A DNA stretch of 64,000 bases from Candidatus Heimdallarchaeota archaeon (GCA_030603365.1 JAUVXV010000012.1:70462-134461); one strand, 5' to 3'; positions 2,350 to 35,175 are shown, numbered from the stretch's first letter. Numbers and translations are program-made. Notes: generated by a model from the letters alone, not told the origin.

Positions 2350-2508
2350 GGTAATATCTCTTGATTCAATAAATTTACTCAATTTAATAATCTTATGTAG
2401 AAACAAAATCACTAGAGTGTGCCTTTATACACATGAAACTTTTATATCCTTAGGTTTTCATTTGATTAATTTTATAAGTGTTTTATGGTTACTAGTTAGT
2501 TGAGAGGC

Positions 2509-3429
2509 ATGTTGAATATAAAAGAACCCACTTCTGAGCAAATGGAGGATTTGTTTGTCTATGATCCATTTGTAGAAAAACGTACTTCAGTACGTATTAG
2601 AAGAGCTGGTTCTTGGTATAACATTAGTCTTATCGATATCAACGATAATCCACTTTATGATTACACTTTAATCTGTGTACATGGGTGGGGTTCATCCTGT
2701 TTAAATTACAGGTTCTTAATGAAATTTCTAAGTCCCTATTTTAGGGTAATTGCATATGATTTGAAAGGTCACGGTGAATCTGATAAGGATGAAGACAACT
2801 ATGATTTGGGGATGTTTACGGAGGAATTAGCTCAAGTGATTGATCATATCCAACCAGAAAATCTCGTTCTTGTTGGACATTCGATGGGAACCGCAATAAT
2901 AATGAATTATCTATCATTAAATAGAAAAAGAGTAAAAACAGCTGTTATGTTATCAGGTGCAATAAATTTCAGAGAACCTTTTCCGAAGATTATTCCTTGG
3001 TTAATATTTCGAATGGATGAAAAAATAAAAAGATTATTAGTTTCTTTTGCAATGTCTATGTCGAGTTCGAAAAGTGTTCCAACAGAGTTGAAAGACATTA
3101 TTAAGGAGCAAGTTGATAGAATACCTTACCATGTCATGAGAAAATCTTTACTAAATACCGTTTATACTTGGAAGAGAGCAGAAAATCTACGGAAAATTAA
3201 AACACCAGTACTGTTTATGGTTGGTGAAAAAGACATACTAACAAAAATCAAACATTCAATTGAGCTAAGTGCTCTATTACCGAATTCAAGATTGGTAATC
3301 TTACCTGAAACGAAGCATGATATACTAATAGATAAAGGTGTAGAAGTTTCTAATCTAATCAGAGAATTCGTTGAATTTCAAATAGATTTAGAAAATATAA
3401 AAGGAATGGAATATTCACCATTCCATTGA
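2509..3429 (+). CDS. Alpha/beta hydrolase
   Basis: VHGWG, DLKGHG.S, GHSMG nucleophile elbow, GEKD, late His. Confidence 0.9.
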   Translation: MLNIKEPTSEQMEDLFVYDPFVEKRTSVRIRRAGSWYNISLIDINDNPLYDYTLICVHGWGSSCLNYRFLMKFLSPYFRVIAYDLKGHGESDKDEDNYDLGMFTEELAQVIDHIQPENLVLVGHSMGTAIIMNYLSLNRKRVKTAVMLSGAINFREPFPKIIPWLIFRMDEKIKRLLVSFAMSMSSSKSVPTELKDIIKEQVDRIPYHVMRKSLLNTVYTWKRAENLRKIKTPVLFMVGEKDILTKIKHSIELSALLPNSRLVILPETKHDILIDKGVEVSNLIREFVEFQIDLENIKGMEYSPFH

Positions 3430-21146: not shown

Positions 21147-23144
21147 TTAGGTTTTCTTGCTTTTTCTATAATAATATAATAGAGGTAAGAATATAATTGA
21201 GGTTATGATGCTAAATGTAGATAAAGGAATGGTACTTGTTGGTATTGTCGGAGTAGGAGTTTCTGTTATAGTAGGAGTGGGAGTGGGAAATTCATAGTAA
21301 CCAGCTGCAGCTAACCATTCAAGAGATTTGGTTTGATTGTATTCATATTGAAAACCGTCATAATAATAGTATGAAGTAAAAGGATAAACAACACTATGAC
21401 AGTTAAAATACTCCCCACCATGCTCTTCTTGATTCATTTTTTCTCTATCAATTGCATGTATAATTGCTTTACGAACCGCTAATCCTCTTGTATACTCTTC
21501 TTTCCCTTCTTCAGTAAGATAAATGAAATTATTAGAACCTCCGATAAATGATCGTTTTAGATTGAATCCCATGAAGGAGAAACTTGCAGTAATAAATGAT
21601 TGAACATCGAATCTAGGGTCTTCTTGAAGGAGTTTTCTTTCTGTAGGAAATATAGTCAACCCTGTCCAATCCAATATTCCAGCTTTAAATTCTGATAATT
21701 CTAATGAAGCGTCAGGAATGGCATGAACATTTATTGTGCTTATATTCAGATATTGAATAGATCCATCTTTTGCACCAATATTCATCCAATAAGGACTGTT
21801 TGTCAAAACTGTTTTTGAATCATGTATAAAATAATCTAGCAGATATTTTCCACAACCAAACGCAGATATGCTAAAAGACTTCCATGTATCAGTAGCAACT
21901 ATTTCTGGATAAAGTCCAATGCATCTGACTCCTCCAGCAGTATATGTTATTGTTGAATCTGTTGAATTAAGGAAAAACTCCGGTAGAATCTCAAAAGACA
22001 TCCTATGCCAAAAATCACTATAAATTTCTTCTTCTGGAGTGGAATAGTCTTCGTCCACATGAATATGAAATGCAAGTTCATTTAGAGGGTCGATATAGAT
22101 GTCTGATATCCAATTATGATAAATTGTACTATTGCTTACAATTGGATTATTCCAAGCTAAAAATGTAAAAACTGCATCTTTTGCGGTTACTTGCTGATTG
22201 GTTCCATTACTATATTCTCCTTTTAATCCAACCATTAATTCTCCATCAGTGATTGTTTCCAAAGGAGGGGAAATTGCTGTTCGTACAGTAACATTGTAAG
22301 AGGGGTTCCAAAACAGATTATCTCGCAAAAAGAATTTGTAATGGGTAGCATTAATCATCTCCCAATCATGTACTAAACCTGAACTTGAAGGTACTAAATA
22401 AGGACTAAATTGTAAAATGGGTTCAGCCATCAAACTCCAGATGAAAGCACTGGAAGTATCATCATGAATTAGAGGATTTAAATCCCTCCAATTTGCGTCT
22501 GCCATGTTAAATTCATCTAAAGAAACTTGTCCTTCATGATAACCATCATAGTACATATATGGTAAGGAATCTACAATACCCCAACTCACATTATATTCTT
22601 CTGTATTTGCCCAAGTTCCTACATAGCTTTTAGGAGCATACAAAGGCATGAGAGGGATGATTTTATCCATCATAAGCTCTTGCCATTCATAATAGATTGG
22701 TCTTCTCTCTGAAGGCTCTATTAATGTCACACCAAGATTCTGTAAATATTCGCTTTCATTATAATAGGGAAGGTTATAATCTAATTGAAATATATTAAGT
22801 GAACCATCTGCAGTATAAACAGATCTCATATCTGGTGAAGAACCTCCACCTGATAAACCAACCACAACCAAATCAAAATCATGAGTAAGTAATAAAGTTC
22901 CAACAAAAACTGACCACTCTTCAACTTTAACTGTAACCTGTATACCAATTTTACTTAAATCATGGGAGATATGGAAACCATAATCTGGTCTAACTCCTCC
23001 ACCACTAGTTTTGAAAGTTAGATAAGCTATTGGCACAGAGAAATCTGCATTAATGAAAGGTGTTCCAATGTTTGTAGAACTAACAAATAATCCGAAAGAG
23101 AATAGAATCAAAAAAATAGTTTTTCTCTTATTCTTCTTACTCAT
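21147..23144 (-). CDS. Family-5 (OppA/DppA-like) solute-binding protein, circularly permuted, C-terminally anchored (copy 1)
   Basis: LNP...D, F.LRD...W, VTAKDAVFT, G.G.Y, VRKAI..AIDR, EWL.AAG; Thr/Pro linker and TM tail. Confidence 0.88.
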   Translation of the reverse strand: MSKKNKRKTIFLILFSFGLFVSSTNIGTPFINADFSVPIAYLTFKTSGGGVRPDYGFHISHDLSKIGIQVTVKVEEWSVFVGTLLLTHDFDLVVVGLSGGGSSPDMRSVYTADGSLNIFQLDYNLPYYNESEYLQNLGVTLIEPSERRPIYYEWQELMMDKIIPLMPLYAPKSYVGTWANTEEYNVSWGIVDSLPYMYYDGYHEGQVSLDEFNMADANWRDLNPLIHDDTSSAFIWSLMAEPILQFSPYLVPSSSGLVHDWEMINATHYKFFLRDNLFWNPSYNVTVRTAISPPLETITDGELMVGLKGEYSNGTNQQVTAKDAVFTFLAWNNPIVSNSTIYHNWISDIYIDPLNELAFHIHVDEDYSTPEEEIYSDFWHRMSFEILPEFFLNSTDSTITYTAGGVRCIGLYPEIVATDTWKSFSISAFGCGKYLLDYFIHDSKTVLTNSPYWMNIGAKDGSIQYLNISTINVHAIPDASLELSEFKAGILDWTGLTIFPTERKLLQEDPRFDVQSFITASFSFMGFNLKRSFIGGSNNFIYLTEEGKEEYTRGLAVRKAIIHAIDREKMNQEEHGGEYFNCHSVVYPFTSYYYYDGFQYEYNQTKSLEWLAAAGYYEFPTPTPTITETPTPTIPTSTIPLSTFSIITSIIFLPLLYYYRKSKKT

Positions 23145-23198
23145 ATTTATCAAATATACAATAATCTCACTTATTAAATACATTTGTTCAAGACATTA

Positions 23199-23581: not shown

Positions 23582-24442
23582 TTATTTTTTCTTCAGATAT
23601 TCCAAAATTGTATCTAGCATAGGTTTAGAGTGAGTATTTTTGTTTGTCTTCAAATCGATATATTCAGAATTCTTTATCATCTGGGTAATTTCTTGAGTAA
23701 TTTCTGTATTATGTAATCTGTCAACACTCTCATCAACAATGAGAACTCGATTGTCAATTCCTTTATATACATCCCAGAAATCTCTCTGAGCAAAATATTT
23801 TGAAGCTCTTTTCCATTTTATTGGATCTGATTCTCTTATCGAACGAGCATACTTAGCACCGTGTTCTTCATCTTCAGCTTTAAAATTCTTGACCCACCAA
23901 ATGCCAATAATTTTTACTATCGAACTTAGCCATAGAGGGACAATTACAATTAGGATTCTTATTGAACGAGGGATGGGTACTTTTTCAATTGGACCAATAA
24001 ACACACTAAGGTAAGGATCAATCATACCGTTCTTGAGCATATAAGCTACTAACATGGCACTGAAAGAGGAAGTAAGCATTACTACTTTTTCTTGTTTCAA
24101 ATCTAAAAATTCAAAAATTTCTTTTATGTCTAAAGCGAATCTCTCAATATCGAACTCAGCAGTTTTAGTGATTTTACTAGATCCCTTTTCTCTCGTTTCA
24201 ATGTACAAAATATTGAAATGCTTTTGGGCATCTAAAAGGAAATTGTCCCATCCCAATACTAAAGAAACCCATCCAGCTACTAAAACAAGTGTAAAAGGGT
24301 CTTTTTTAACAGCTTTAGTTAAGCTTTGAAGTATTCTTATTTCAGAACCATCAGAAACTTGTACATAAGAAATTTCTGCTGTTTTTTCATACTCAGCAAG
24401 AGAAATAAGATCGAATTTTGCATCTGCCTTTTTTTTACTCAT
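23582..24442 (-). CDS. Alpha/beta hydrolase (atypical elbow)
   Basis: LVAGW, ETREK.SS, F..DI, TSSFSA elbow, D.LH. Confidence 0.75.
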   Translation of the reverse strand: MSKKKADAKFDLISLAEYEKTAEISYVQVSDGSEIRILQSLTKAVKKDPFTLVLVAGWVSLVLGWDNFLLDAQKHFNILYIETREKGSSKITKTAEFDIERFALDIKEIFEFLDLKQEKVVMLTSSFSAMLVAYMLKNGMIDPYLSVFIGPIEKVPIPRSIRILIVIVPLWLSSIVKIIGIWWVKNFKAEDEEHGAKYARSIRESDPIKWKRASKYFAQRDFWDVYKGIDNRVLIVDESVDRLHNTEITQEITQMIKNSEYIDLKTNKNTHSKPMLDTILEYLKKK

Positions 24443-24525
24443 ATTTATAGTTTGATTTTCTTAAATTTAAATATTACACAATAATCTAGGTAAAAATTTA
24501 AAAGAAAGAAAAAAAATGTTAAATC

Positions 24526-25335
24526 ATGATTTTTGATGCAATTATTCTTGCAGGAAAAAGTGAAAAAGATAACGAGTTGATTCAAAAAGAAAAGGTATTT
24601 TCAAAACCTTTTTTAAAATTAGGAGACAAAATGTTTCTTGAACACCAAGTTGAAGTTCTTCGGCAAATAGATGGAATGAGAAATATCTACATTAGTGGAA
24701 TGTCAGAAAAAGAATGGAAAACCAAATTACCTGCACCAGTTATTTTTGATGAATTTGAAGCAGATATTATCGAAAAATTAAGACATTTTAGACGTGATAT
24801 TTTCACACCTGATACTGAACCTGATTATGTAATTATAGTATCCAGTGATATTCCATTAATCACCAAAGAAGCCATCGAAAGATTTTTGGAAAAATGTAAA
24901 CAATCAACTGATGGTGAGTTAAAAGCTTTATATTACATGAGCCTTATTGATGAAAAAGTGATGACCAGTAAGTTTCCAGAATCAAATAGAACTTACTTAA
25001 AACTTAGGGATGTAAAATGGTGTGCTGGAGATATGATGGTAGCCAAACCTTCCATTATTGATTCTCATGGAGATGTTCTAGATCAACTTGTTAACAATAG
25101 GAAATCAGTATTCAAGTCATTGTTTGTTCTAAGTCCCATGACTGTAATAAAAATTGCTATTGGCAGATTAACGATGGATGGTTTTAATGATGCTATTAAC
25201 AAATACCTATTCAAGAGACCAGACTCGTGTATAGGAGTACTTGCTGATGATCCAGAACTTGGAATGGATGTTGATAAACCATTTCAACTAGATATTGTAA
25301 GGGAGTATTATGAAAAAATAAGTAGAAATGATTAA
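24526..25335 (+). CDS. MobA-like NTP-transferase (nucleotidyltransferase family)
   Basis: DAIILAG, KPFL, SSDIPLI, RTY.KLRD, ELGMDVDKP. Confidence 0.8.
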   Translation: MIFDAIILAGKSEKDNELIQKEKVFSKPFLKLGDKMFLEHQVEVLRQIDGMRNIYISGMSEKEWKTKLPAPVIFDEFEADIIEKLRHFRRDIFTPDTEPDYVIIVSSDIPLITKEAIERFLEKCKQSTDGELKALYYMSLIDEKVMTSKFPESNRTYLKLRDVKWCAGDMMVAKPSIIDSHGDVLDQLVNNRKSVFKSLFVLSPMTVIKIAIGRLTMDGFNDAINKYLFKRPDSCIGVLADDPELGMDVDKPFQLDIVREYYEKISRND

Positions 25336-25337
25336 AC

Positions 25338-26198
25338 TTACATAATAGGAAAAACAGCAGCCATAACTGCTCCAATCCCCACAGAAACAATAATTGCAGA
25401 ACTAATTTGCCAATGGAAAGTTTCATTGATTTCTAAGGTATTCTTAATTTTTCTTTCTAGCTTTTCTGCAAGCTCTGGAGCACCCGAATGAAGAATAATT
25501 AGATTGTAATCAACTTCGATTGAAGTTTTCTTTCTTATTTCTGATACCATATTTCTTATTGCCCCTTCATATCCTAATCCACCGCCAAATCCCAGAACGC
25601 CTTCATCTAGTTTTACTTTGTATATTGGTTTTATCTTGAATAATGTTGTTGCTAAAGAGATTGGTAATGTTCTTTTTATTTTTCCTGATTTAAACAAATT
25701 CTCAAAGTCATTAGAAAAACCAATTGTATAGATTAAGTTTTTAATAGTATCAAATTGTTTGAAAATTTCATCTATTGTTTTATTTTCTTCAAGCATTTGA
25801 TTGGCTGTAAATATGAAAGGAGCTTGGCTTGGTCCAGCTAATTGAGTTGGATAATAATGGATTTTTAATTTATCGGAAACTCTTTTAGAAGCAATTCTTA
25901 CTGAATTAACTTGATTAGAGATTTTAGGTGTCATAAATGGATAGAGAATTTCCTTATGTCCTTCTTCTATGATCTCTTCAAAAAGTTCAAGAGCTTGATG
26001 AGGAGAGGCAAAACTAGTTGTTGGAAAAGGTTCAAGAGATGGGAATATTTCCATAAATTTGTTAATATCCACTTCAGACAATTCTTTTTTCATTTCTCCA
26101 TTAACTGCAACATTTATCTCTAGAACTGATGTCTTGTTCTTTTGTAAGTATTCTAAGGGAATCTGAGAGGTTGAATCTACCATCAATTTCATTTTCAT
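25338..26198 (-). CDS. DegV/FakB fatty-acid-binding protein (copy 1)
   Basis: DSTS.IP, PTTS..SP, ISNQ.NS, L.KSGKI, IKPI, VG.GA. Confidence 0.88.
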   Translation of the reverse strand: MKMKLMVDSTSQIPLEYLQKNKTSVLEINVAVNGEMKKELSEVDINKFMEIFPSLEPFPTTSFASPHQALELFEEIIEEGHKEILYPFMTPKISNQVNSVRIASKRVSDKLKIHYYPTQLAGPSQAPFIFTANQMLEENKTIDEIFKQFDTIKNLIYTIGFSNDFENLFKSGKIKRTLPISLATTLFKIKPIYKVKLDEGVLGFGGGLGYEGAIRNMVSEIRKKTSIEVDYNLIILHSGAPELAEKLERKIKNTLEINETFHWQISSAIIVSVGIGAVMAAVFPIM

Positions 26199-26358
26199 AG
26201 CAATTTCTGAAAGAATAAATCATTTAAAAAAATATCTAATTGAATACGAATATATCTAATTAATTATATGAAAATGGAAACATTCTTTTACAAAAACACA
26301 AGTACAATTATGAAATTATAAAAGTGAAAAGAAAAAAGAGAAAAAAAGTAATTTCAAG

Positions 26359-27231
26359 TTATTTGATTGAATCTAATGTAGGATAAAGTGTAACCATTGC
26401 AGTGCCATAACCAAGTGTATTTCCAACACATGGTGACATTTGCCAGTATTTCACACTTTCAATTTTCCTGATTTTCTTAAGGCTTTCCTCAAGTTTCTTT
26501 CCTAGTTTTTCATTTTTGACATGAGATATTATCATATTATAGGTTATATTGGCATCTGTTTTCTCTTCTGCAGCTTGAGTGATTTTCTTAATCGATCCAC
26601 CAAAACCTGCACCAGCACCACCACTAGAAAAACCTTTATCTTGTTCACTTGCATAGATAGGCTTCAAACTCATCAATGAAGAAATCATGGACATTTTTAC
26701 AGTCTTCTTAATTCTTCCTGTTCTGAACAAAATATCAAAACTGGTAGAAATACCATTAGAAAAAATGAGCGGTTTCATTTTATCAAGAGTTTTTGTTATA
26801 GTTGCAATAGATTCACCCTTCTCAAGTAATTCTTGAGCATAAAGTATGAAAGGAGCCTGACTTGTAGCAGAATATTCGGTTGGATAATAATGAACTTTGA
26901 GTTTATCTTTTACTTTTTTGTATCCAACTTGTACAGGTGATATCTGATTTGACATTGTAGGGGTCAAATAAAGATAAAGTGCCTCCTTGTAACCTTCATC
27001 AATAATTTGTTCGAATACTTCTAGAGCATCTTGAGGGTTAGCAACAGAAGTTTTGGGTACGGGATTCATTTTCGCCATTTTAGAAACAAAATCTTCATAG
27101 TCAACTTCTGATAACTCTTTAAAGTGTTCACCATCCAGTTCTATAGTGGGTTCAAAGAAAATAATATTCTTTTCTTTAGCGTATTCAATTGGAATCTGAG
27201 ATGTTGAATCGGTAATTATTTTTACTTTCAT
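26359..27231 (-). CDS. DegV/FakB fatty-acid-binding protein (copy 2)
   Basis: ITDSTS, PKTS..NP, L.RTGRI, LKPI, LG.GT. Confidence 0.9.
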   Translation of the reverse strand: MKVKIITDSTSQIPIEYAKEKNIIFFEPTIELDGEHFKELSEVDYEDFVSKMAKMNPVPKTSVANPQDALEVFEQIIDEGYKEALYLYLTPTMSNQISPVQVGYKKVKDKLKVHYYPTEYSATSQAPFILYAQELLEKGESIATITKTLDKMKPLIFSNGISTSFDILFRTGRIKKTVKMSMISSLMSLKPIYASEQDKGFSSGGAGAGFGGSIKKITQAAEEKTDANITYNMIISHVKNEKLGKKLEESLKKIRKIESVKYWQMSPCVGNTLGYGTAMVTLYPTLDSIK

Positions 27232-27560
27232 AGATACCGATTTCCAACAACTTTAGAGATATTTAAAGTTTATCTAATTTTATAAAAAAACATAACAGTA
27301 ATTTCAAAAGATTGGATTTACTTGCAAGAAATATTTCTCTTACTCCTGAATTTATTATCTTCTTTTCCTTCCTTAATATTTACTCTGCGAATACAACTTT
27401 CGAAAAGATTAACTGACATTATTGGAGAGAATTTTTACTATCAATCTAAATGCTAATGTTAAATAACAATATTTGTAAAGATTTTTACGATCTTTAATCA
27501 TTCAAAAACAATGTATGACTACTTAATATAGTTTAAATATAATAAAGAAAAAAAAACTTG

Positions 27561-28427
27561 ATGAAAATTAAAATCACGACAGATGTAACTACTAGTATCC
27601 CAAAGGAAATTGCTGATAAAAATGACATAGAATTTGTTGAATTTTATTTAAATATAAATGGAAAACCAACAAAAGAATTATCAGAGATAAACAGAGAGAA
27701 GTTCATGAATGAAGCTAAATTCATGACTCCTTATCCTACTTCCAATTTTCCTAGCCCACAAAATTATCTTGAAGCATTTCAGAAAGTTGAGGATAATGGA
27801 TATGATGAGATTCTCCATATAGGTCTTAGTTTGAATATCTCTGGAGCATTAAATTCAGCTAGAGTTGCTGCTAAGAGAATTAAGAAAACTAAGATTACTG
27901 TTTATGATAGTGGTATAATGGGACCCAGTCAAGGTACGATGGTTCTAATGGCTAGAAAGCTATTAAAGAAAGGTAAAAGTGTTGAAGAAGTAATTAAATA
28001 TTTAGAATCTGAGAAACTAAAAATTTATGGTGCAGGATGTTCGGAAAATTTTGATATCCTTTTCAAAACAGGAAGAGTAAAGAAAGGTGCAGGCATCACT
28101 GTTATGTCTTCACTTATGAGACTTAAACCTTTGTTTGAACTGAATTTTGAAAAAGGTGTAACAGGAATAGGAGGAGGAATGGGTTTTAGAGGGGCTATTA
28201 AAAAAATAGTTGCCAATATAATTGAAAAAACTGATGATAAAATAACATATGATCTTTTTATGACTGATGCTGGAGCACCTAAATTACTTAAGCGATTAGA
28301 AGAAGAGATTGTTAAAGTAAGAAAGATTAAAAATATTCATTACTGGCCTATGGTTTCTATGATGATTCATACTTGTGGAAAAGGTTCAATAATAGGAACT
28401 TTAAGTCCAACACTAGATGAGATTTAG
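27561..28427 (+). CDS. DegV/FakB fatty-acid-binding protein (copy 3)
   Basis: ITTD.T, PTS..PSP, LS..ISGA.NSA, VYDS, L.KTGRV, LKP, HTCG.G. Confidence 0.9.
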   Translation: MKIKITTDVTTSIPKEIADKNDIEFVEFYLNINGKPTKELSEINREKFMNEAKFMTPYPTSNFPSPQNYLEAFQKVEDNGYDEILHIGLSLNISGALNSARVAAKRIKKTKITVYDSGIMGPSQGTMVLMARKLLKKGKSVEEVIKYLESEKLKIYGAGCSENFDILFKTGRVKKGAGITVMSSLMRLKPLFELNFEKGVTGIGGGMGFRGAIKKIVANIIEKTDDKITYDLFMTDAGAPKLLKRLEEEIVKVRKIKNIHYWPMVSMMIHTCGKGSIIGTLSPTLDEI

Positions 28428-28771
28428 ATCTGTTTAGAATATATCTGGTATATTTGTTTGAAAAAAAGTAAAAGAGTACATTGTAACTAGCTCCATCAAA
28501 CCTCTTTAAGCTCTAGCTTAATTCCAATGAAAGTTACAAGAGTAAGTACAAGTAAAGTAGAACATGTTAGGTAAGCAAGTTAATACCAGATATATTTACC
28601 TAGAGGAAGTATGAATTGAACAGTAAGTACAAATATGTTAAGATATAGATTCTTCTGATTCCATGGAAACAAACTTCCATTGCTGGATATTGCTTCTTCT
28701 TTTTATTCAAGAATAAAAAGCAATTTCAAACGATTGGAGTTACTAAAAAGAAAAGAATAAGGAGAGTCTGA

Positions 28772-29332
28772 TTAGTACCAAACTCTTTTAAAACCCATTT
28801 TGTAACCTATGAAACTGAATAATATATGGAAGAAGAATGTTATACTAGCAAGAATAACAAAGTAGTACCAAAGGTATTCTCCAAAAGGTAGCATGGCTGG
28901 TGCAGCAACTGCAAATCCAGTTAGTATATATCCCATTTGATCCCATGGGAATAGACCACTTCCAGGTTTGATATTGATTCTTCTTTTAATGAATGAACCC
29001 AGCAAATCTGCAATATGATTTCCTATTGAGAAAAGTAATCCAATATATATAGGATAGTTACAAGGGAAAACATTTCCATAGAACCATCCAAGACCAAAAG
29101 GATCAGCAAAGAAAATTGATATAAGCACTCCACTCACTGTACCTCCTATTAGACCAAAGATGATACCTTTCCAGGTTTTATTATCTCCAAAGATTCTTCT
29201 CCCTTTCCAGATTTTTCCACCATCAACAGGTTTACCTCCACCCCATAGATTAGCAAAGGTACTTGTTTGATACATAGGTTGGGCAAAAATAATAGCAATA
29301 AGTATATGCCAGCCGTAAGCAAATTCTGCCAT
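28772..29332 (-). CDS. carS: CDP-archaeol synthase (CarS/DUF46) homologue
   Basis: GGG.PVDGG...GRRIFGD.KTW.G and DL.GSFIKRR...DQ motifs. Confidence 0.88.
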   Translation of the reverse strand: MAEFAYGWHILIAIIFAQPMYQTSTFANLWGGGKPVDGGKIWKGRRIFGDNKTWKGIIFGLIGGTVSGVLISIFFADPFGLGWFYGNVFPCNYPIYIGLLFSIGNHIADLLGSFIKRRINIKPGSGLFPWDQMGYILTGFAVAAPAMLPFGEYLWYYFVILASITFFFHILFSFIGYKMGFKRVWY

Positions 29333-29465: not shown

Positions 29466-30083
29466 ATGTATTCCAAAGCAGTAGTAATCAGGGGAGACAT
29501 GATAAAATCTAGAGAAGCTCTAGAGAAAGCAGAATATTGGAAGAAATTGGATCAAGTTATTTCCAAAATCAACAGAAAATTCAAGAAACAGCTTTTATCC
29601 AAATTTGAAATCTTCAAAGGTGATGAAATAACGGGAATGTGTGAAAATCTCAAAATCGCATATATTATTGTATCACAAATTTTTGAGTATTTGCATCCCT
29701 TAAAAATAAGAATGGTACTATCTAAAGGGGATATTGATCAGAAAAGACAAACTGAGAACCTAAATGAACAAGCTGGCGAAGTATTTTGGAATGCATCAGC
29801 AGCAATGAATGAACTGAAAAGATCTAAAAGATACATTAGATTCACAACTAAGAATGACCTAAATGATTCAATTTTGACTAATTTAGCAGACATTGTGACT
29901 GAATTGAAATATGATTGGACTGAAAAAGAAAAGGAAATCATAACATTTTATGAAGAATTTGAAAATCAGAACAGAGTAGCCAAAAAGATGCGTATCTCTC
30001 AGCAATCAGTTTCAGATGGATTAAGAAGAGCCAGGTACAAACAAATAAGAGATGCTGAAGAAGCATTGATAGAATTTATATGA
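29466..30083 (+). CDS. SatD family protein (cyclase-like N-domain plus C-terminal HTH)
   Basis: GDM..SR, F.I.KGDEI, G..F..A..A, WT..E, Q..VA..M.ISQQSVS..L.RA. Confidence 0.85.
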   Translation: MYSKAVVIRGDMIKSREALEKAEYWKKLDQVISKINRKFKKQLLSKFEIFKGDEITGMCENLKIAYIIVSQIFEYLHPLKIRMVLSKGDIDQKRQTENLNEQAGEVFWNASAAMNELKRSKRYIRFTTKNDLNDSILTNLADIVTELKYDWTEKEKEIITFYEEFENQNRVAKKMRISQQSVSDGLRRARYKQIRDAEEALIEFI

Positions 30084-30535
30084 TATATAACGATTTAGTA
30101 GTATATTGCTTTACTATACTGGATAGATTTATTGATTTTAGCAGGTGGATTACTTATTACATGTTAGCAACCCATTTTACAGTTGAATTAACGACAGGAT
30201 ACATTGATAGAACTGGATTGAAAGATAAGAAGAAAGTAGAAGAGAAAACTGAAGAACAACTCATTCTAGAGAGAAAACGAAGAAAGGCAGGTTTAATTGT
30301 TAGTCGTTGCGAGAACATTCTTATTCTAACTTTTATGCACCTCAATGAAGTAACAGCACTTGTAATCATTATTGGTATAAAAGGACTTGTTAGAAGAGAA
30401 GACATAGAGAAGAAACCGGGATATTATCTAGTAGGTACAATTCTTAACCTGACAATTTCAATACTATTAGGATTATTGATAAAAGTACTAATCATGAAAT
30501 ACGGAAACTTACCTCTCCACCTAAGTAAAGCATAA
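30080..30535 (+). CDS. Small membrane protein translationally coupled to satD (DUF3307/SatE-like)
   Basis: ATGA overlap; AG..V...E..L, K.L.R, YYLVGT..N motifs. Confidence 0.7.
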   Translation: MIYNDLVVYCFTILDRFIDFSRWITYYMLATHFTVELTTGYIDRTGLKDKKKVEEKTEEQLILERKRRKAGLIVSRCENILILTFMHLNEVTALVIIIGIKGLVRREDIEKKPGYYLVGTILNLTISILLGLLIKVLIMKYGNLPLHLSKA

Positions 30536-30551: not shown

Positions 30552-32816
30552 TCATTTCTTACTTCTTTTTCTAAATTTTTTGAGACTTATAGATACAACT
30601 GTAATAACTGCAGACATGATAATAATGGAATAAGAATCTATAGTTATAAACGAGTTTGTATCTATATTTGGTATGAAATCAATTATGAAACTTCTAGTTG
30701 GGGTTCTCTTAGACTCATTATAGATGTTCGTATACTCAACATAGTATTCTATTTTAGTTCCATTTGTGAATTCTGAACCGATATTAAGAGAATAAATACT
30801 TTCAGATTCCTTAATCATGCTAGATGAGTTGAACCCCTCATCATTCTGTTCATAAAATAAAACTACTGGATCAATACCTAAATCTCCAGAACAATTGAAT
30901 TGTATAGTTATATCTTTGTCACTCGCTTCAGCATTTAGAATATTGAAAGAATATTCAGGTAACCCATAACTATCTCTTAACCATTCTTCAGCTAATTCAG
31001 GATTGTAATCATACTTGATGATATCATTATAGTAATAATATGAAGTATAAGGATAAAGAACACTATGAGCAACTAAGTATTCTCCATCATGTAGTATTTG
31101 GTTCATTTCATCTCTATTAATTGCGTAGCAGATTGCTTTACGAATTCCAACGGCACGTGTATAATCTTCTTTTCCCTCTGTTTCCATGAAGATAAAATTA
31201 TCTACCCCACCAATAAATGGTCTTCTCAAATTGAATGCCATAAATGTAAGACTGTTTGATAGTTTCTGATAAACTGTGAATCTGGGATCAGTTTCCATAT
31301 TTTTCCTTTCAGCTGGGAATGCAGTTATACGTGTCCAATCAAGTTTCCCTGCCTTGAATTCCATAAGTTCTGCAGAAGTATCAGGAATAACTCTAACATT
31401 AATTGTTTCAACAAAAGGAACCAAACCGGCTTGACCATCAAATGCACCAACTCCAAACCAGTATGGGCTTTGCTTTAGAACTGTTATTGAGTTTTGAATG
31501 TAGTAATCTAACATATACTTACCACAACCAAATGCAGAAGTACTGAATGCTAACCATTGATCAGTATTGATGATTTGCGAATACAATCCTTTGCACTCTA
31601 TTCCACTCTCAGTATATGTGATTTCAAGTAAGGTAGAATTGAGGAAAAACTCTGGTAGAATACTACTAGTCATTCTACTCCAGAAGTCAACATAATAATC
31701 TGGTTCTGCTGTTTCTGGAATTCCATCAATATGTATATGAAACGCTAAAGGATCAAATGGATCAACGTAACAATCTGAAATCCATTCATGCCCTATTGTT
31801 TCTTCACTCACAGCTTGATTACCCCAACAAAGAAATGTAAAAACAGCATCTTTAGCAGTAACTTGTTGATTAGTGCCATTACTGTAATTTCCTTTAAGCC
31901 CAACCATCAATTGATTGATATCTGATGAATTCAAAGGAGAAGATCCTGAAGTTCTTCCTGTGACATTAAAAGATGGGTTCCAATACACTTCATCTCTCAT
32001 ATAGAATTTGAAATGGAAGTCATCAATTTTTTCCCAATTATCTATTAAACCATTCTTTACAGGAGCAAGATCTGGACTGAATTGTAGGATTGGTTCAGCC
32101 ATTAAACTCCAGATGAATGAACTAGAAGTATCGTCAGTAAAAAGAGGATTGAGTTCTCTCCAGTTTGCATCAGCTAGGTTGAACTCATTTAATGATACTT
32201 GACCTTCATGATAGCCATCATATGACATATATGGTAAACAGTTAACAATACCCCATCTGGCATCATAACCAAGCGTATTTGCCCAAGTTACAGAATAAGA
32301 ATTAGGTGAGTACAAAGGTAACATGGGTACGATTTTATCCATCATAAGTTGTTGCCAATCATAATAAAGCTGTTGTCTAACTTCAAGATCAGTAATAGTT
32401 ACACCAAGATCTTGCATTTGCTCACTTTGGTTACCATATGGTAAGTCTGGACCTAATCTAAAAATATTCAAAGTTCCATCTTCTGTATAGAGCTCTCTCA
32501 TATCTGGAGATGCTCCACCTCCAGAAATACCAACAATTCCTAAATCCCAATCATTTAAACTCCAGGGATCCCACGGCCAGGACCACTCTTGCACTTTGAC
32601 TTCTACATCTATGCCAATCTCTCTCAGATACATTGCTATGTATAACCCATAATCTGGTCTAACACCACCACCATAAGTTTCCAAAACAAGATTGGCAATT
32701 GGTTGATTTATTTCAGAGAATATAATAGAAGGAGTTATGGAAATTGCACTTAAACTTGTTATAAAAACTAAAGTTATTATTAATCTCATCTTATTTCTTG
32801 AAACTGTTTTTCCCAT
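30552..32816 (-). CDS. Family-5 solute-binding protein, circularly permuted, extra Ig-like domain and C-terminal TM (copy 2)
   Basis: Same motif set and order as copy 1. Confidence 0.88.
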   Translation of the reverse strand: MGKTVSRNKMRLIITLVFITSLSAISITPSIIFSEINQPIANLVLETYGGGVRPDYGLYIAMYLREIGIDVEVKVQEWSWPWDPWSLNDWDLGIVGISGGGASPDMRELYTEDGTLNIFRLGPDLPYGNQSEQMQDLGVTITDLEVRQQLYYDWQQLMMDKIVPMLPLYSPNSYSVTWANTLGYDARWGIVNCLPYMSYDGYHEGQVSLNEFNLADANWRELNPLFTDDTSSSFIWSLMAEPILQFSPDLAPVKNGLIDNWEKIDDFHFKFYMRDEVYWNPSFNVTGRTSGSSPLNSSDINQLMVGLKGNYSNGTNQQVTAKDAVFTFLCWGNQAVSEETIGHEWISDCYVDPFDPLAFHIHIDGIPETAEPDYYVDFWSRMTSSILPEFFLNSTLLEITYTESGIECKGLYSQIINTDQWLAFSTSAFGCGKYMLDYYIQNSITVLKQSPYWFGVGAFDGQAGLVPFVETINVRVIPDTSAELMEFKAGKLDWTRITAFPAERKNMETDPRFTVYQKLSNSLTFMAFNLRRPFIGGVDNFIFMETEGKEDYTRAVGIRKAICYAINRDEMNQILHDGEYLVAHSVLYPYTSYYYYNDIIKYDYNPELAEEWLRDSYGLPEYSFNILNAEASDKDITIQFNCSGDLGIDPVVLFYEQNDEGFNSSSMIKESESIYSLNIGSEFTNGTKIEYYVEYTNIYNESKRTPTRSFIIDFIPNIDTNSFITIDSYSIIIMSAVITVVSISLKKFRKRSKK

Positions 32817-32946
32817 ATCATATTTCACCTATAATTTTCTCTTGTATCTCAATTATCACTTTACAAATAATAATAGTAAAAATAATTATTAACACTAGCT
32901 TAAGATTGTTTCATGACTGTTTTTTGACATTCTTAGGATTGTTAAG

Positions 32947-35175
32947 CTAAGTTGCCAATTTTCTTTTTTTTGCAATTAAATACGGTATTAAAAGAATTAA
33001 ACCAAATAGGGAGAAAGATATAGTTACTGATGGTAAAGTTGTATATTCCGTTCCTACTATAAAGAAATAATCAATTGAAATAAACTGCCCTACTTTTGCT
33101 GTTGCAATTTTAAGATAAAACGTCACATTATCAGTGATGTTGAAAGATGAGCCAAAGTTGTATACAAACACATTGTCATTTTCTTCGTTCATACTGTGCT
33201 CTTGCCAGTTATTACTATTAATTTTGTAGCGAACAACTGTGCTGACTACATCAGCTGAATCCCCATAATCAATAGTCAGGGTTATGTTATCATGAAAGTT
33301 ATTCTTATTTTCAATATCAACAGTAAAATCAGGAATACCTCCAAGAACTGCGCCTAACCACTCTTTTGATTTATCAAGATTGAAATCATATTTGATAATA
33401 TCATTGTAATAATAATATGCAGTATAAGGAAAGAGGACACTATGAGCAATTAGATATTCACCGTTATGTAGTATCTGATTCATTTCATCTCTATCGATTG
33501 CATAACATATGGCTTTACGAATAGCAACACCAACAGTATAATTCTCTTTACCTGGTTCGTTCAACCATTCAAAATTGCCAGTACCACCTATCAGAGGTCT
33601 TCGAATATCGAAAGCTAAAACTCTCAAACTATTTGAGATGAAGGTTTGAATATCATATGTAGGATCACCCCAAGGATCCGATAATGAACTCACTTGGTCT
33701 GCACTACACCAATCTAGTTTACCTTCTACAAATTCGTTGAATTGATCTATTTCATTAGATATAATTAGAATATTTATAGTTTCAATATCTAAGTCTTGAG
33801 TTGTACCATCAATACCTCCAATACCTAGCCAGTTAGGATTTTTTCTTAGAACAGTGATAGAATCTTTAATAGAATAATCTAGCATATACTTTCCACATCC
33901 AAATGCAGAATAAGAATAATTGCTCCACTGTGGAGTCTCAACAATTTCTGGATAAAGTCCTCTACATTCAGCGCCTCCATCTGTATAAGTGATATCTGAT
34001 CTTGAGGAATTTAAAAAGAATTCAGGTAGAAAACCAACATTCATTTTAGACCAAAAATCAACATAGTGTTCATTTTGTGGCGTATCTGGGAGACCATCTA
34101 TGTGAAGGTGGAAAACTAGAGGATCAACTGGATCAACATATAAATCTGATATCCAGTCATAGGAGTGAGATTCCTCATTTAGAAGGTTGCTCGCCCAGTA
34201 GGAAAGCGTAAAAACTGCGTCTTTCGCAGTTACTTGTTGATTTGTACCATCACTAGTCTCATTATTCTTAAGTCCCTTCATAAGCTGTTCAGCAGGTACA
34301 GCGCTTAATGGGATAGATCCTTCATCTCTTTCTGTTGTATTGTAAGATGGGTTCCAATAAACATTGTCTCTCAAATAGAATTTATAATGAAAATCTTCCA
34401 CTTCTTCCCAATCAAAAACTATACCAGTTATTAGTGGAACTAGATCGGGACTAAACTGTAAAACAGGTTCAGATACAAGATCCCAAATTAATTCTTCAGA
34501 TTCATCATTAATTCGAGATGGAAGAAGATCCCCCCAATTATTCCCATGCATATTGAATTCAGTAAGAGATGTTTGACCTTCGTGATAACCTTCATATTCC
34601 ATGTAAGGTAAGGAACCTGCAATTCCCCATCTTCCTTCATAGCCTAAGGTATTACCCCATGTTGCTACATACTTTCTCTGTGCATACAGTGGTAACATTG
34701 GAACTATTTTATCCATCATCAATTCTTGCCAATCATAATAGTGCTGTTGTCTTTGATTCAAATCTGTAATGTTAATTCCTTCTTGCTGCATCTGCTCACT
34801 AAGAGCACCATAAGGAATATCAGGAGCAAGAAGGAAAATATTCTTTGAACCTCCATCAGTGTAATACTCCCTCATATCAGGGGAATCACCGTCATCCTCA
34901 AAATCAACAATCCGCATATCAAAACTAGGCAAACTGGGTATACCTGGAAATACAGACCATTCTTCTGTTTTAACTTCAATATTCATTCCAATATCTCCAA
35001 GATATTGAGCAATGTAAAACCCATAATCAGGCATAACTCCCCCTCCTTCTACCATTAGAACGAAATTGGCAAAAATAGATTTGGATAAATCAATCTCACT
35101 ATTTACATAATTCATAGGAGTACTCAAGAAGGCTATTATCAATAGCGTGCATAGGATTTTTCGTCTGCAAACCAA
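32947..35175 (-). CDS. Family-5 solute-binding protein, circularly permuted, extra Ig-like domain and C-terminal TM (copy 3, most diverged)
   Basis: Same motif order; VTAKDAVFT, IRKAICYAIDR. Confidence 0.87.
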   Translation of the reverse strand: MVCRRKILCTLLIIAFLSTPMNYVNSEIDLSKSIFANFVLMVEGGGVMPDYGFYIAQYLGDIGMNIEVKTEEWSVFPGIPSLPSFDMRIVDFEDDGDSPDMREYYTDGGSKNIFLLAPDIPYGALSEQMQQEGINITDLNQRQQHYYDWQELMMDKIVPMLPLYAQRKYVATWGNTLGYEGRWGIAGSLPYMEYEGYHEGQTSLTEFNMHGNNWGDLLPSRINDESEELIWDLVSEPVLQFSPDLVPLITGIVFDWEEVEDFHYKFYLRDNVYWNPSYNTTERDEGSIPLSAVPAEQLMKGLKNNETSDGTNQQVTAKDAVFTLSYWASNLLNEESHSYDWISDLYVDPVDPLVFHLHIDGLPDTPQNEHYVDFWSKMNVGFLPEFFLNSSRSDITYTDGGAECRGLYPEIVETPQWSNYSYSAFGCGKYMLDYSIKDSITVLRKNPNWLGIGGIDGTTQDLDIETINILIISNEIDQFNEFVEGKLDWCSADQVSSLSDPWGDPTYDIQTFISNSLRVLAFDIRRPLIGGTGNFEWLNEPGKENYTVGVAIRKAICYAIDRDEMNQILHNGEYLIAHSVLFPYTAYYYYNDIIKYDFNLDKSKEWLGAVLGGIPDFTVDIENKNNFHDNITLTIDYGDSADVVSTVVRYKINSNNWQEHSMNEENDNVFVYNFGSSFNITDNVTFYLKIATAKVGQFISIDYFFIVGTEYTTLPSVTISFSLFGLILLIPYLIAKKRKLAT

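Follow-up and report, generated by a model that had tools for sequence, protein, structure and literature searches.

A genus-conserved gene cluster of Heimdallarchaeota that may set a hydrolase/DegV pair within a CarS/cytidylyltransferase-like lipid module

Six genes at positions 23582-29332 of a 64,000-nucleotide stretch of DNA from a Candidatus Heimdallarchaeota archaeon (the window; G000:C4:70462-134461) may be read, with moderate confidence, as a genus-conserved fatty-acid/lipid cluster. The genes encode an alpha/beta-hydrolase (hyd), a nucleoside triphosphate (NTP) transferase, three DegV-type proteins (DegVa, DegVb and DegVc) and a CarS-like protein (CarSw). In this reading a hydrolase/DegV pair is set within a CarS/cytidylyltransferase module, and a split Fak kinase and PlsY are encoded elsewhere in the genome. 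The genome measures 3.65 Mb in 17 contigs and is 89% complete. A first-pass annotation of the window had listed the same six genes and had proposed a locus for scavenging fatty acids and feeding them into lipid synthesis. Open reading frame (ORF) listing and Pfam/NCBIfam family scans place all six where it put them (Table 1), in the mixed orientation that it described: hyd and the NTP-transferase diverge, DegVa and DegVb run together, DegVc runs the other way, and CarSw is again reversed. This bears out the observation; the interpretation finds partial support.

The strongest evidence for the reading is the retained adjacency of several paralogous pairs of hyd-family and DegV genes. DegVa, DegVb and DegVc form, with one further protein encoded on contig C5, a group of each other's nearest paralogues (clade W; mutual identity 33-41%). 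Their identity to the other intact DegV paralogues of the genome is 17-26%, and to a degenerate copy on contig C15 it is 14-18%. Clade W was found in 23 of the 24 genomes of the genus and in none of 16 genomes of three sister families. When coordinates are compared, hyd-family and clade-W genes are immediate neighbours, co-directional or divergent and 25-234 bp apart, at G000:C5, G023:C200, G020:C25, G024:C123, G018:C23, G013:C115, G009:C60, G009:C203, G003:C84 and G003:C20; window-type arrangements occur at G023:C24 and G016:C28. By manual comparison, a partner lies within 5 kb of about 18 of the ~88 hyd genes and of 18 of the 72 clade-W DegVs; fragmentation of the assemblies makes these counts lower bounds. 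Since the genomes are closely related, the adjacencies are not independent events. The first-pass annotation had allowed that the whole arrangement might be due to chance. For the pairing of hyd with DegV, which recurs at 10 or more other places, chance is not the explanation, and hyd and the clade-W DegVs would seem to work together.

DegV genes are numerous in this lineage. The genome has 14 DegV matches, and the location of three of them within 3.1 kb of a 3.65-Mb genome indicates clustering beyond chance. Sister genomes of the genus have 10-19 copies (3 in one genome of 1.2 Mb), and the other families of the order have 1-5. The paralogues are old, with identities of 12-43% among themselves. 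The three window proteins belong to the family without difficulty: TIGR00762 gives 159-164 bits (cut-off 99.7), the PF02645 scores (Table 1) lie above the cut-off of 27, and the domain spans the whole protein in each case. DegVc matches FakB1 and DegV structures in the PDB at E values of 1e-16 to 1e-19. In Streptococcus suis FakB2, the network that holds the fatty-acid carboxylate consists of T61, S93, R170 and H264 (PMC10848957). In the alignment, clade W keeps the Thr (Ser in DegVc) and the Ser or Thr of this network, and the Arg persists in DegVb and DegVc, with Lys at this site in DegVa. Against Bacillus subtilis DegV (3fys), DegVb reads T/T/R/T for T/S/R/H. Of the claim that the three are fatty-acid carriers, family membership stands, but agreement with the FakB1 equivalog model and a complete carboxylate network do not.

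Orthologues of DegVb, 61-78% identical, were found in eight sister genomes. In L062 and L063, the nearest relatives of the window, DegVb is followed by DegVc orthologues at 77-88% identity, and no DegVa lies between the NTP-transferase and DegVb. Other DegVs of the genome, on contigs C15 and C10 (L041:9843-11660 and L043:9191-10105), stand beside genes resembling those of membrane-protein biogenesis in the endoplasmic reticulum: TRAP-beta-like (26 bits), Get3/ArsA ATPase (267 bits) and CCDC47/PAT-complex-like (37.5 bits).

The hydrolase has no Pfam match and matches NCBIfam alpha/beta-hydrolase models only weakly (E 1e-6). Its AlphaFold (AF2) model, with a predicted local distance difference test (pLDDT) value of 88.8, is a lidded alpha/beta-hydrolase. 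In Foldseek the model resembles esterases, a lipase, a polyhydroxybutyrate (PHB) depolymerase (PhaZ), perhydrolases and epoxide hydrolases, with template-modelling (TM) scores of about 0.7. In an alignment of 30 hyd-family sequences, D241 and H271 of a candidate Ser-Asp-His triad are invariant, and S126 is present in at least 90%. From the model, hyd looks like an enzyme of this fold whose subfamily is not specifiable and whose predicted activity is on acyl esters or thioesters. The family appears to be lineage-specific: the sources of all 41 homologues found in a word-index search are named Heimdallarchaeota or Heimdallarchaeaceae. The first-pass annotation had taken hyd for a scavenging lipase. 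The hydrolase fold agrees with this, but secretion or membrane attachment is not borne out, in that no long hydrophobic N-terminal helix is seen in the model (a reading of the model, not a signal-peptide test). Scavenging and the release of endogenous acyl chains are thus equally likely roles.

The CarS-like protein of the cluster is a second copy. CarSw scores 124 bits against the NF003114 equivalog (cut-off 148), and the other CarS-like protein of the genome, encoded on contig C9, scores 142 bits. Aligned to the Aeropyrum pernix enzyme (5guf), CarSw retains GDxKT..G and DxxGSFxKRR; the C9 copy also has the cytidine triphosphate (CTP)-transferase motifs. In a quick maximum-likelihood tree, for which SH-aLRT (a likelihood-ratio branch test) was the only support measure, the CarSw clade and the other Heimdall CarS clade are sisters, joined at a node with 100% support; their stems measure 0.72 and 0.27, respectively. 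By these comparisons CarSw is a fast-evolving, lineage-specific duplicate of cytidine diphosphate (CDP)-archaeol synthase. Thus a carS gene is present in the window as claimed, but the copy nearest to canonical CarS, by scores and tree, is the one on C9. The next tblastn matches of CarSw are from Clostridia, and acquisition from that source was considered and rejected, since the tree makes it sister to Heimdall CarS. Its orthologues are confined to genera g1 and g10.

The cluster is conserved in parts within the genus. The hyd and NTP-transferase genes form a divergent pair in 11 orthologous loci, and CarSw, hyd and the NTP-transferase are linked in five to six sister loci with varying order. 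Sister loci read CarS-hyd-NTP-hyd or CarS-DegVb-NTP, the window reads hyd-NTP-DegVa-DegVb-DegVc-CarS, and its nearest relatives read hyd-NTP-DegVb-DegVc. DegVb adjoins both CarSw and the NTP-transferase in L021 and adjoins hyd at G009:C60. Synteny across Heimdallarchaeia, which the first-pass annotation had raised, therefore holds for hyd, NTP-transferase and CarSw within the genus, but outside the genus the link to CarSw is not seen in this form.

The NTP-transferase is soluble, and its AlphaFold model (pLDDT 91.3) is best matched in the PDB by 2dpw, the uncharacterised Thermus protein TTHA0179 (TM 0.76/0.87), followed by KdsB, IspD, TarI and CMP-NeuAc synthetase. Residues G10, K27, D108, D248 and D250 are invariant. 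All NCBIfam equivalogs score far under their cut-offs (e.g., MobA, 22.6 bits against 164). The model thus resembles cytidylyltransferases, a type that activates phospho-alcohols or sugar acids, and it is not of an adenylate-forming or kinase fold; a role as the fatty-acid activation step, as first proposed, finds no support in it. This result bears on the most literal scheme for the locus, in which a secreted or membrane-bound lipase draws on external lipids, and the fatty acids are carried by DegV, activated by the NTP-transferase and used by the housekeeping CarS. The gene families do stand side by side, as that scheme expects. Nevertheless it is highly improbable, considering not only the fold of the NTP-transferase but also the hyd model, in which no long hydrophobic N-terminal helix is seen, the divergent nature of the clustered CarS, and a FakA-type kinase elsewhere in the genome, which is the expected activator. 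As a separate observation, four tandem NTP-transferase paralogues and one hyd paralogue occur on contig C9 (Table 1), 20-33 kb upstream of a 3382-aa megasynthase ORF.

Relatives of the NTP-transferase point to an older gene arrangement. Bacterial homologues, about 30% identical, sit in a trio of a ~300-aa protein of unknown function, the NTP-transferase and PAP2 in all four contexts examined; a DegV gene is two genes away in only one distinct context. The ~300-aa protein has no Pfam match, bears the automatic ESM Atlas label 'putative quinate 5-dehydrogenase', and has clusters from Bacillota, Chloroflexota and Deinococcota. A relationship between this bacterial protein and hyd was considered and rejected (hhalign probability 0.4%). 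In the closed archaeal genome G065, of a sister genus (g11), a co-directional row encodes a 305-aa unknown protein, CarS, the NTP-transferase, PAP2 and an alpha/beta-hydrolase. The ~300-aa protein is 42-45% identical between G065 and bacteria. The window genome itself has the cassette without CarS, outside the window and 27 kb upstream of the cluster (Table 1), with a ~300-aa protein 43-45% identical to its bacterial counterparts; it ends just before the window begins, and the hydrolase orthologue that goes with it is the second alpha/beta-hydrolase of the window (2500..3429). The same cassette (~300-aa protein, NTP_transf_3 and PAP2) occurs in L082, L083, L084 and L093. A class-IV aminotransferase gene is divergently upstream of it in L082 and L084; in the window genome, this gene lies nearby, beyond an APH-like kinase gene. 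The cassette has probably moved between archaea and bacteria, and we infer that a CarS-NTP module seems to have been duplicated and to have recruited a hydrolase/DegV pair, giving the window cluster.

The same facts may be read differently. CarSw and the NTP-transferase, descended from the row of unknown protein, CarS, NTP-transferase, PAP2 and hydrolase, may form an isoprenoid-lipid or head-group module, and the DegVs may have been inserted later and have a role of their own. That two unrelated modules merely lie side by side is considered somewhat unlikely. Such an arrangement is consistent with the sister loci, most of which read CarSw-hyd-NTP-hyd with no DegV between (one DegV is only 3 kb away), with the G065 row, in which no DegV was detected in a 20-kb stretch, with the rarity of DegV near the bacterial trio, and with the presence of DegVa in this genome only. 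It accounts less well for the hyd family, which pairs with both the NTP-transferase and the clade-W DegVs and so bridges the two halves, for the location of DegVb directly between CarSw and the NTP-transferase in L021, or for the one bacterial trio that does have a DegV two genes away.

Neither fakA nor plsY is present in the 64-kb window, as the first-pass annotation had said. A search of the genome, which it had suggested, finds parts of FakA and three PlsY genes, but not PlsC or a convincing GpsA. Two Dak2 proteins of 227 and 214 aa match positions 1-196 of TIGR03599 (FakA/YloV) with 248 and 215 bits, respectively, and match DhaL with 31 and 28 bits; both of these FakA_N-type proteins are under the equivalog and subfamily cut-offs. 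The 227-aa protein aligns end-to-end with the crystal construct of Staphylococcus aureus FakA_N (7rm7; E 5e-45), with the nucleotide/Mg motifs kept. No Dak1 was found by profile search of the 89% complete genome. The FakA middle domain (FakA_L) is encoded as a stand-alone protein of 101 aa on contig C15 (Table 1; PF21645 51.8 bits, above the cut-off). It has the GDSL and HxH motifs, the latter invariant in family f1, and is intact as an ORF in 11 genomes of four genera; 10 of the 11 sequences share an extra Cys ahead of GDS. On the same strand, 4 bp downstream of FakA_L, there is a Cys-rich 128-aa ORF of no family (L057:1086-1472(-), C15), which could be a partner of FakA_L.

The split state of FakA is general in family f1 (24 of 24 and 22 of 22 genomes in two samples). 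These include two closed genomes, and the split is therefore not an assembly artefact. In families f2-f6, the N and middle domains are fused in proteins of 310-350 aa. Other Asgard families have no FakA match in 155 genomes, and in a sample of 201 Asgard genomes the matches are limited to the class Heimdallarchaeia. In a library clustered at 50% identity, the nearest FakA sequences outside the genus are, after one of 780 aa, mostly of 313-350 aa, followed by bacterial full-length proteins of ~550 aa. The 780-aa protein (P0278), which matches the 227-aa FakA_N better than any other protein outside the genus, has two FakA_N-like stretches. According to Subramanian et al. (PMC9136124), FakA_N and FakA_L as separate proteins restore kinase activity in vitro, and without FakA_C the Km for FakB is ten times higher. 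When the FakA_N and FakA_L of this genome are co-folded, the interface score (ipSAE) is 0.55, compared with 0.00 for the best of three controls; of 80 solved complexes, 58 reach the mark used for ipSAE, as do 2 of 110 mismatches, and a score of 0.60 or under is found in only 7 of the 80 complexes and in both of these mismatches. The runs share at least 76% of contacts, with a partner pLDDT of at least 81 (own alignments). The model lends weak support to binding of FakA_N to FakA_L and may also reflect likeness to, or memory of, the solved full-length FakA (7W7H).

Gene order in Heimdallarchaeia is direct genomic evidence for a route from Fak to PlsY. In five genomes of families f5 and f6, genes for a FakA of N and middle domains, a DegV and PlsY follow one another in the same direction, separated by short gaps, and in L089-L091 the ORF coordinates overlap by 4 to 59 bp. 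This arrangement suggests that a Fak kinase, a DegV carrier and PlsY act in one route there. In the window genome, the PlsY of contig C14 scores 161.4 bits with TIGR00023 (cut-off 137.2), and the other two score 116 and 103. The C14 gene adjoins a Hydrolase_4 gene and is ~3 kb from a DegV. On the same contig, ~3 kb from the DegV and 7 kb from the PlsY, an 815-aa protein (L044:2821-5268(-)) joins a 2,4-dienoyl-CoA-reductase-like part (Oxidored_FMN and Pyr_redox_2) to a C-terminal SCP2 domain. In family f13 (G191:C6, G116:C106, G149:C51 and others), a PlsY domain is N-terminal in frames of ~400-425 aa, often in tandem with two to four copies, and no FakA match was found in those genomes.

The DegVs of the fakA-degV-plsY operon are nearest to the C15 tandem pair of this genome and not to clade W. 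The clade-W DegVs and hyd may act on fatty acids or related carboxylates in the service not of membrane synthesis by Fak and PlsY but of breakdown, detoxification or turnover of storage lipids, a possibility regarded as rather unlikely. The low DegV family scores of clade W, the lowest in the genome, and the loss of the carboxylate-site His in DegVa and DegVb are in keeping with such a role, as are the SCP2-fused protein near another DegV and the resemblance of the hyd model to PHB depolymerases as well as to esterases. On the other hand, the binding network retains its Thr, Ser/Thr and Arg/Lys, and, with FakA_C absent, docking rules may differ from those in bacteria.

In the preferred reading, that of a fatty-acid/lipid cluster, the core would be a cytoplasmic, lineage-specific hyd that partners lineage-specific DegV-type carriers. 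A fatty acid split off by the hydrolase from an ester or thioester would pass to a DegV. The split Fak kinase (FakA_N and FakA_L, without FakA_C) would phosphorylate the DegV-bound fatty acid, and PlsY would move the acyl group onto glycerol phosphate, with sn-glycerol-1-phosphate (G1P) provided by G1P dehydrogenase (G1PDH). CarSw and the cytidylyltransferase-like enzyme would act at the CDP-activation or head-group side of the lipid. The analysis establishes gene content, homology, folds, motif conservation, synteny and taxonomic range; ligand binding, each enzymatic step and the link of the DegV/hydrolase half to the CarS/NTP half are what we infer from these.

A number of observations weigh against this reading. 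The mixed orientations imply that the cluster is not one operon; at most DegVb and DegVa could share a transcript. The synteny of CarSw is limited to one genus and the g10 orthologue stands alone, so that shared ancestry could explain the adjacency. The window DegVs score 86, 85 and 103 bits with the FakB1 equivalog NF038249, far under the cut-off of 350, and the carboxylate-site His is absent in DegVa and DegVb and shifted by one position in DegVc; judged by their sequences, they may bind another ligand or may not be Fak substrates. On the kinase side, the zinc/catalytic Cys of the FakA middle domain is Asp or Glu in family f1, and FakA_C, the FakB-docking domain, was not found in the genome, where PF13684 weakly matches DegV paralogues only. 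Among 53 Heimdallarchaeia genomes, no FakA match (E <= 0.001) extends past model position 336, and most end near 300. According to Shi et al. (PMC10848957), FakA_C is necessary for activity and the middle domain is a structural zinc finger. Downstream, no match to PlsX or PlsC and no separate CdsA gene were found in the 89% complete genome, and GpsA (PF01210) has partial N-domain matches only (24-37 bits), none of them convincing; without these, the path from the lyso-lipid to a substrate of CarS is undefined. Finally, cultured Lokiarchaeia have archaeal lipids only, as cited in PMC13400652.

Of the archaeal lipid pathway, G1PDH is present (451 bits, cut-off 413). Geranylgeranylglyceryl phosphate synthase (GGGPS; PF01884) was not found in the genome, nor by local tblastn and hidden Markov model searches with six Asgard GGGPS sequences. 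The region C16:1631-2332, a candidate for a hidden GGGPS, was rejected as a TIM barrel of the PRAI type. In the sample of 201 genomes, GGGPS (the PcrB family) is present in nearly all non-Heimdall Asgard families; in the Heimdall families, where FakA, DegV and PlsY occur, it was found in 1 of 22 genomes of f1 (neither closed genome), 0 of 1 of f2, 1 of 7 of f3 (weak), 0 of 2 of f4 and 0 of 3 of f6, and in f5 the matches are only weak and divergent. The single copy in the f1 genus (G021:C45:1467-2243, L118) looks canonical and lies on a 7.6-kb contig of 31% GC; it may be genuine or a binning error. The bacterial PlsY takes G1P as well as sn-glycerol-3-phosphate (PMC13400652). The megasynthase of contig C9, which has two ketosynthase domains (Table 1), makes endogenous fatty acids possible. 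It may be conjectured that in Heimdallarchaeaceae the GGGPS step, the first to form an ether bond, has been replaced by PlsY-type acylation supplied by the minimal, split Fak and the large DegV family, giving mixed ester, and possibly ester-ether, glycerol-phosphate lipids that duplicated CarS enzymes such as CarSw would CDP-activate, with the hydrolase/DegV branch of the window feeding the route. This wider proposal is quite unlikely as it stands.

The system shares with the bacterial FakA/FakB-PlsY systems of Staphylococcus, Streptococcus and Bacillus the DegV-fold carriers, a Dak2-type domain ~45% identical to S. aureus FakA_N, a middle domain with HxH, and PlsY; in related archaea plsY directly follows degV. 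In contrast to the bacterial systems, FakA_C is missing throughout the class, FakA in f1 is split into N (two paralogues) and middle proteins, Asp or Glu takes the place of the zinc-site Cys, PlsX and PlsC were not found, the window DegVs lack the conserved His, and each genome has 10-19 DegV paralogues, where the cited bacterial systems have 1-4 FakBs. Compared with CarS of A. pernix (5GUF; NF003114), CarSw belongs to the same family and length class and has the CTP-transferase motifs, but it is a second, faster-evolving copy of genera g1 and g10 only, is under the equivalog cut-off, and is linked with hydrolase, NTP-transferase and DegV genes in a lineage with no detected GGGPS, the maker of the CarS precursor. 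In comparison with the bacterial cassette, which includes Thermus TTHA0179, the window copy, whose NTP-transferase is ~30% identical, has a hydrolase, DegVs and a CarS duplicate in place of PAP2 and the ~300-aa protein. A similar concept is found in Enterococcus faecalis, where the thioesterase TesE is reported to free fatty acids and Fak to make acyl-phosphate for PlsY, so that PlsX is bypassed (PMC12288450). The window genome, with a megasynthase and without a detected PlsX, is comparable to this by analogy only, and kinship of hyd with TesE is not implied.

Bacteria and eukaryotes have fatty-acid ester lipids, and archaea have isoprenoid ether lipids; the crossing of this 'lipid divide' by the archaeal ancestor of eukaryotes is still unexplained. 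The acyl-phosphate donor of PlsY usually comes from PlsX. The fakA-degV-plsY operon of two families is a candidate for the missing donor route in Heimdallarchaeia, and the FakA of N and middle domains would be a natural version of the minimal enzyme that is active in vitro. With a family that has a split kinase, 10-19 DegVs, hydrolase-DegV pairs, an extra CarS and no GGGPS found, the ester-lipid question becomes testable, and specific proteins and lipids can now be named for asking whether relatives of eukaryotes build fatty-acid lipids. The plsY and plsC genes of Asgard archaea were already known. Coleman et al. (2019; PMC6431249) considered a role in lipid synthesis unlikely, on the grounds that archaeal PlsB and PlsX were not found and that the homologues were patchy and came from metagenome bins only. 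In a search of the literature outside subscription journals, no work was found that links Fak, DegV or FakB with Asgard archaea; PMC13400652 mentions them together and makes no link.

The coordinates of the cluster, its neighbours and the related genes on other contigs are listed in Table 1.

Table 1. Genes of the cluster, other features of the window (positions counted from its first nucleotide) and related genes outside the window (contig positions)
Feature	Position	Strand	Remarks
hyd, alpha/beta-hydrolase, 286 aa	23582..24442	-	esterase/lipase/thioesterase-like, helical lid (AF2 model, Foldseek)
NTP-transferase, 269 aa	24526..25335	+	PF12804 (NTP_transf_3) 37.8 bits, cut-off 27; MobA-like/GT-A fold, nearest cytidylyltransferases
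DegVa, clade W, 286 aa	25338..26198	-	PF02645 143.6 bits
DegVb, clade W, 290 aa	26359..27231	-	PF02645 144.3 bits
DegVc, clade W, 289 aa	27558..28427	+	PF02645 162.7 bits
CarSw, CarS duplicate, 186 aa	28772..29332	-	PF01864 105 bits, cut-off 22; ORF runs to 29392
Small conserved neighbour, 123 aa	23199..23570	-	no Pfam or NCBIfam match
SatD-family gene and overlapping 151-aa ORF	29466..30535	+	PF16264 69 bits
Second alpha/beta-hydrolase, 309 aa	2500..3429	+	Abhydrolase_1 105.8 bits, Hydrolase_4 89 bits
SBP_bac_5 paralogue	21147..23183	-	one of three, 678-758 aa
SBP_bac_5 paralogue	30552..32828	-	one of three, 678-758 aa
SBP_bac_5 paralogue	32947..35175	-	one of three, 678-758 aa
Cassette without CarS	C4:66858-69238		L073:10859-13238
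Second CarS-like gene	C9:194864-195454		NF003114 142 bits
NTP-transferase paralogues (four, tandem) and hyd paralogue	C9:35767-40008 and C9:48063-48887
Ketosynthase domains (two) of the megasynthase	C9:68178-71771
FakA_L, 101 aa	C15:338636-338938		PF21645 51.8 bits

The public gene call for CarSw, at 186 aa, agrees with the end coordinate given by the first-pass annotation. The titles of the related contigs are Candidatus Heimdallarchaeota or Heimdallarchaeaceae. A copy of the 123-aa neighbour, 64% identical, adjoins hyd in L062. The SatD gene is 2-4 kb from CarSw in L024 and L026 also, and has no evident lipid role. The second hydrolase of the window also matches Thioesterase and LIDHydrolase, more weakly, and is the orthologue, at 56% identity, of the last gene in the G065 row. 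The three large SBP_bac_5 paralogues bracket the cluster and are ~50% identical to copies in L025.

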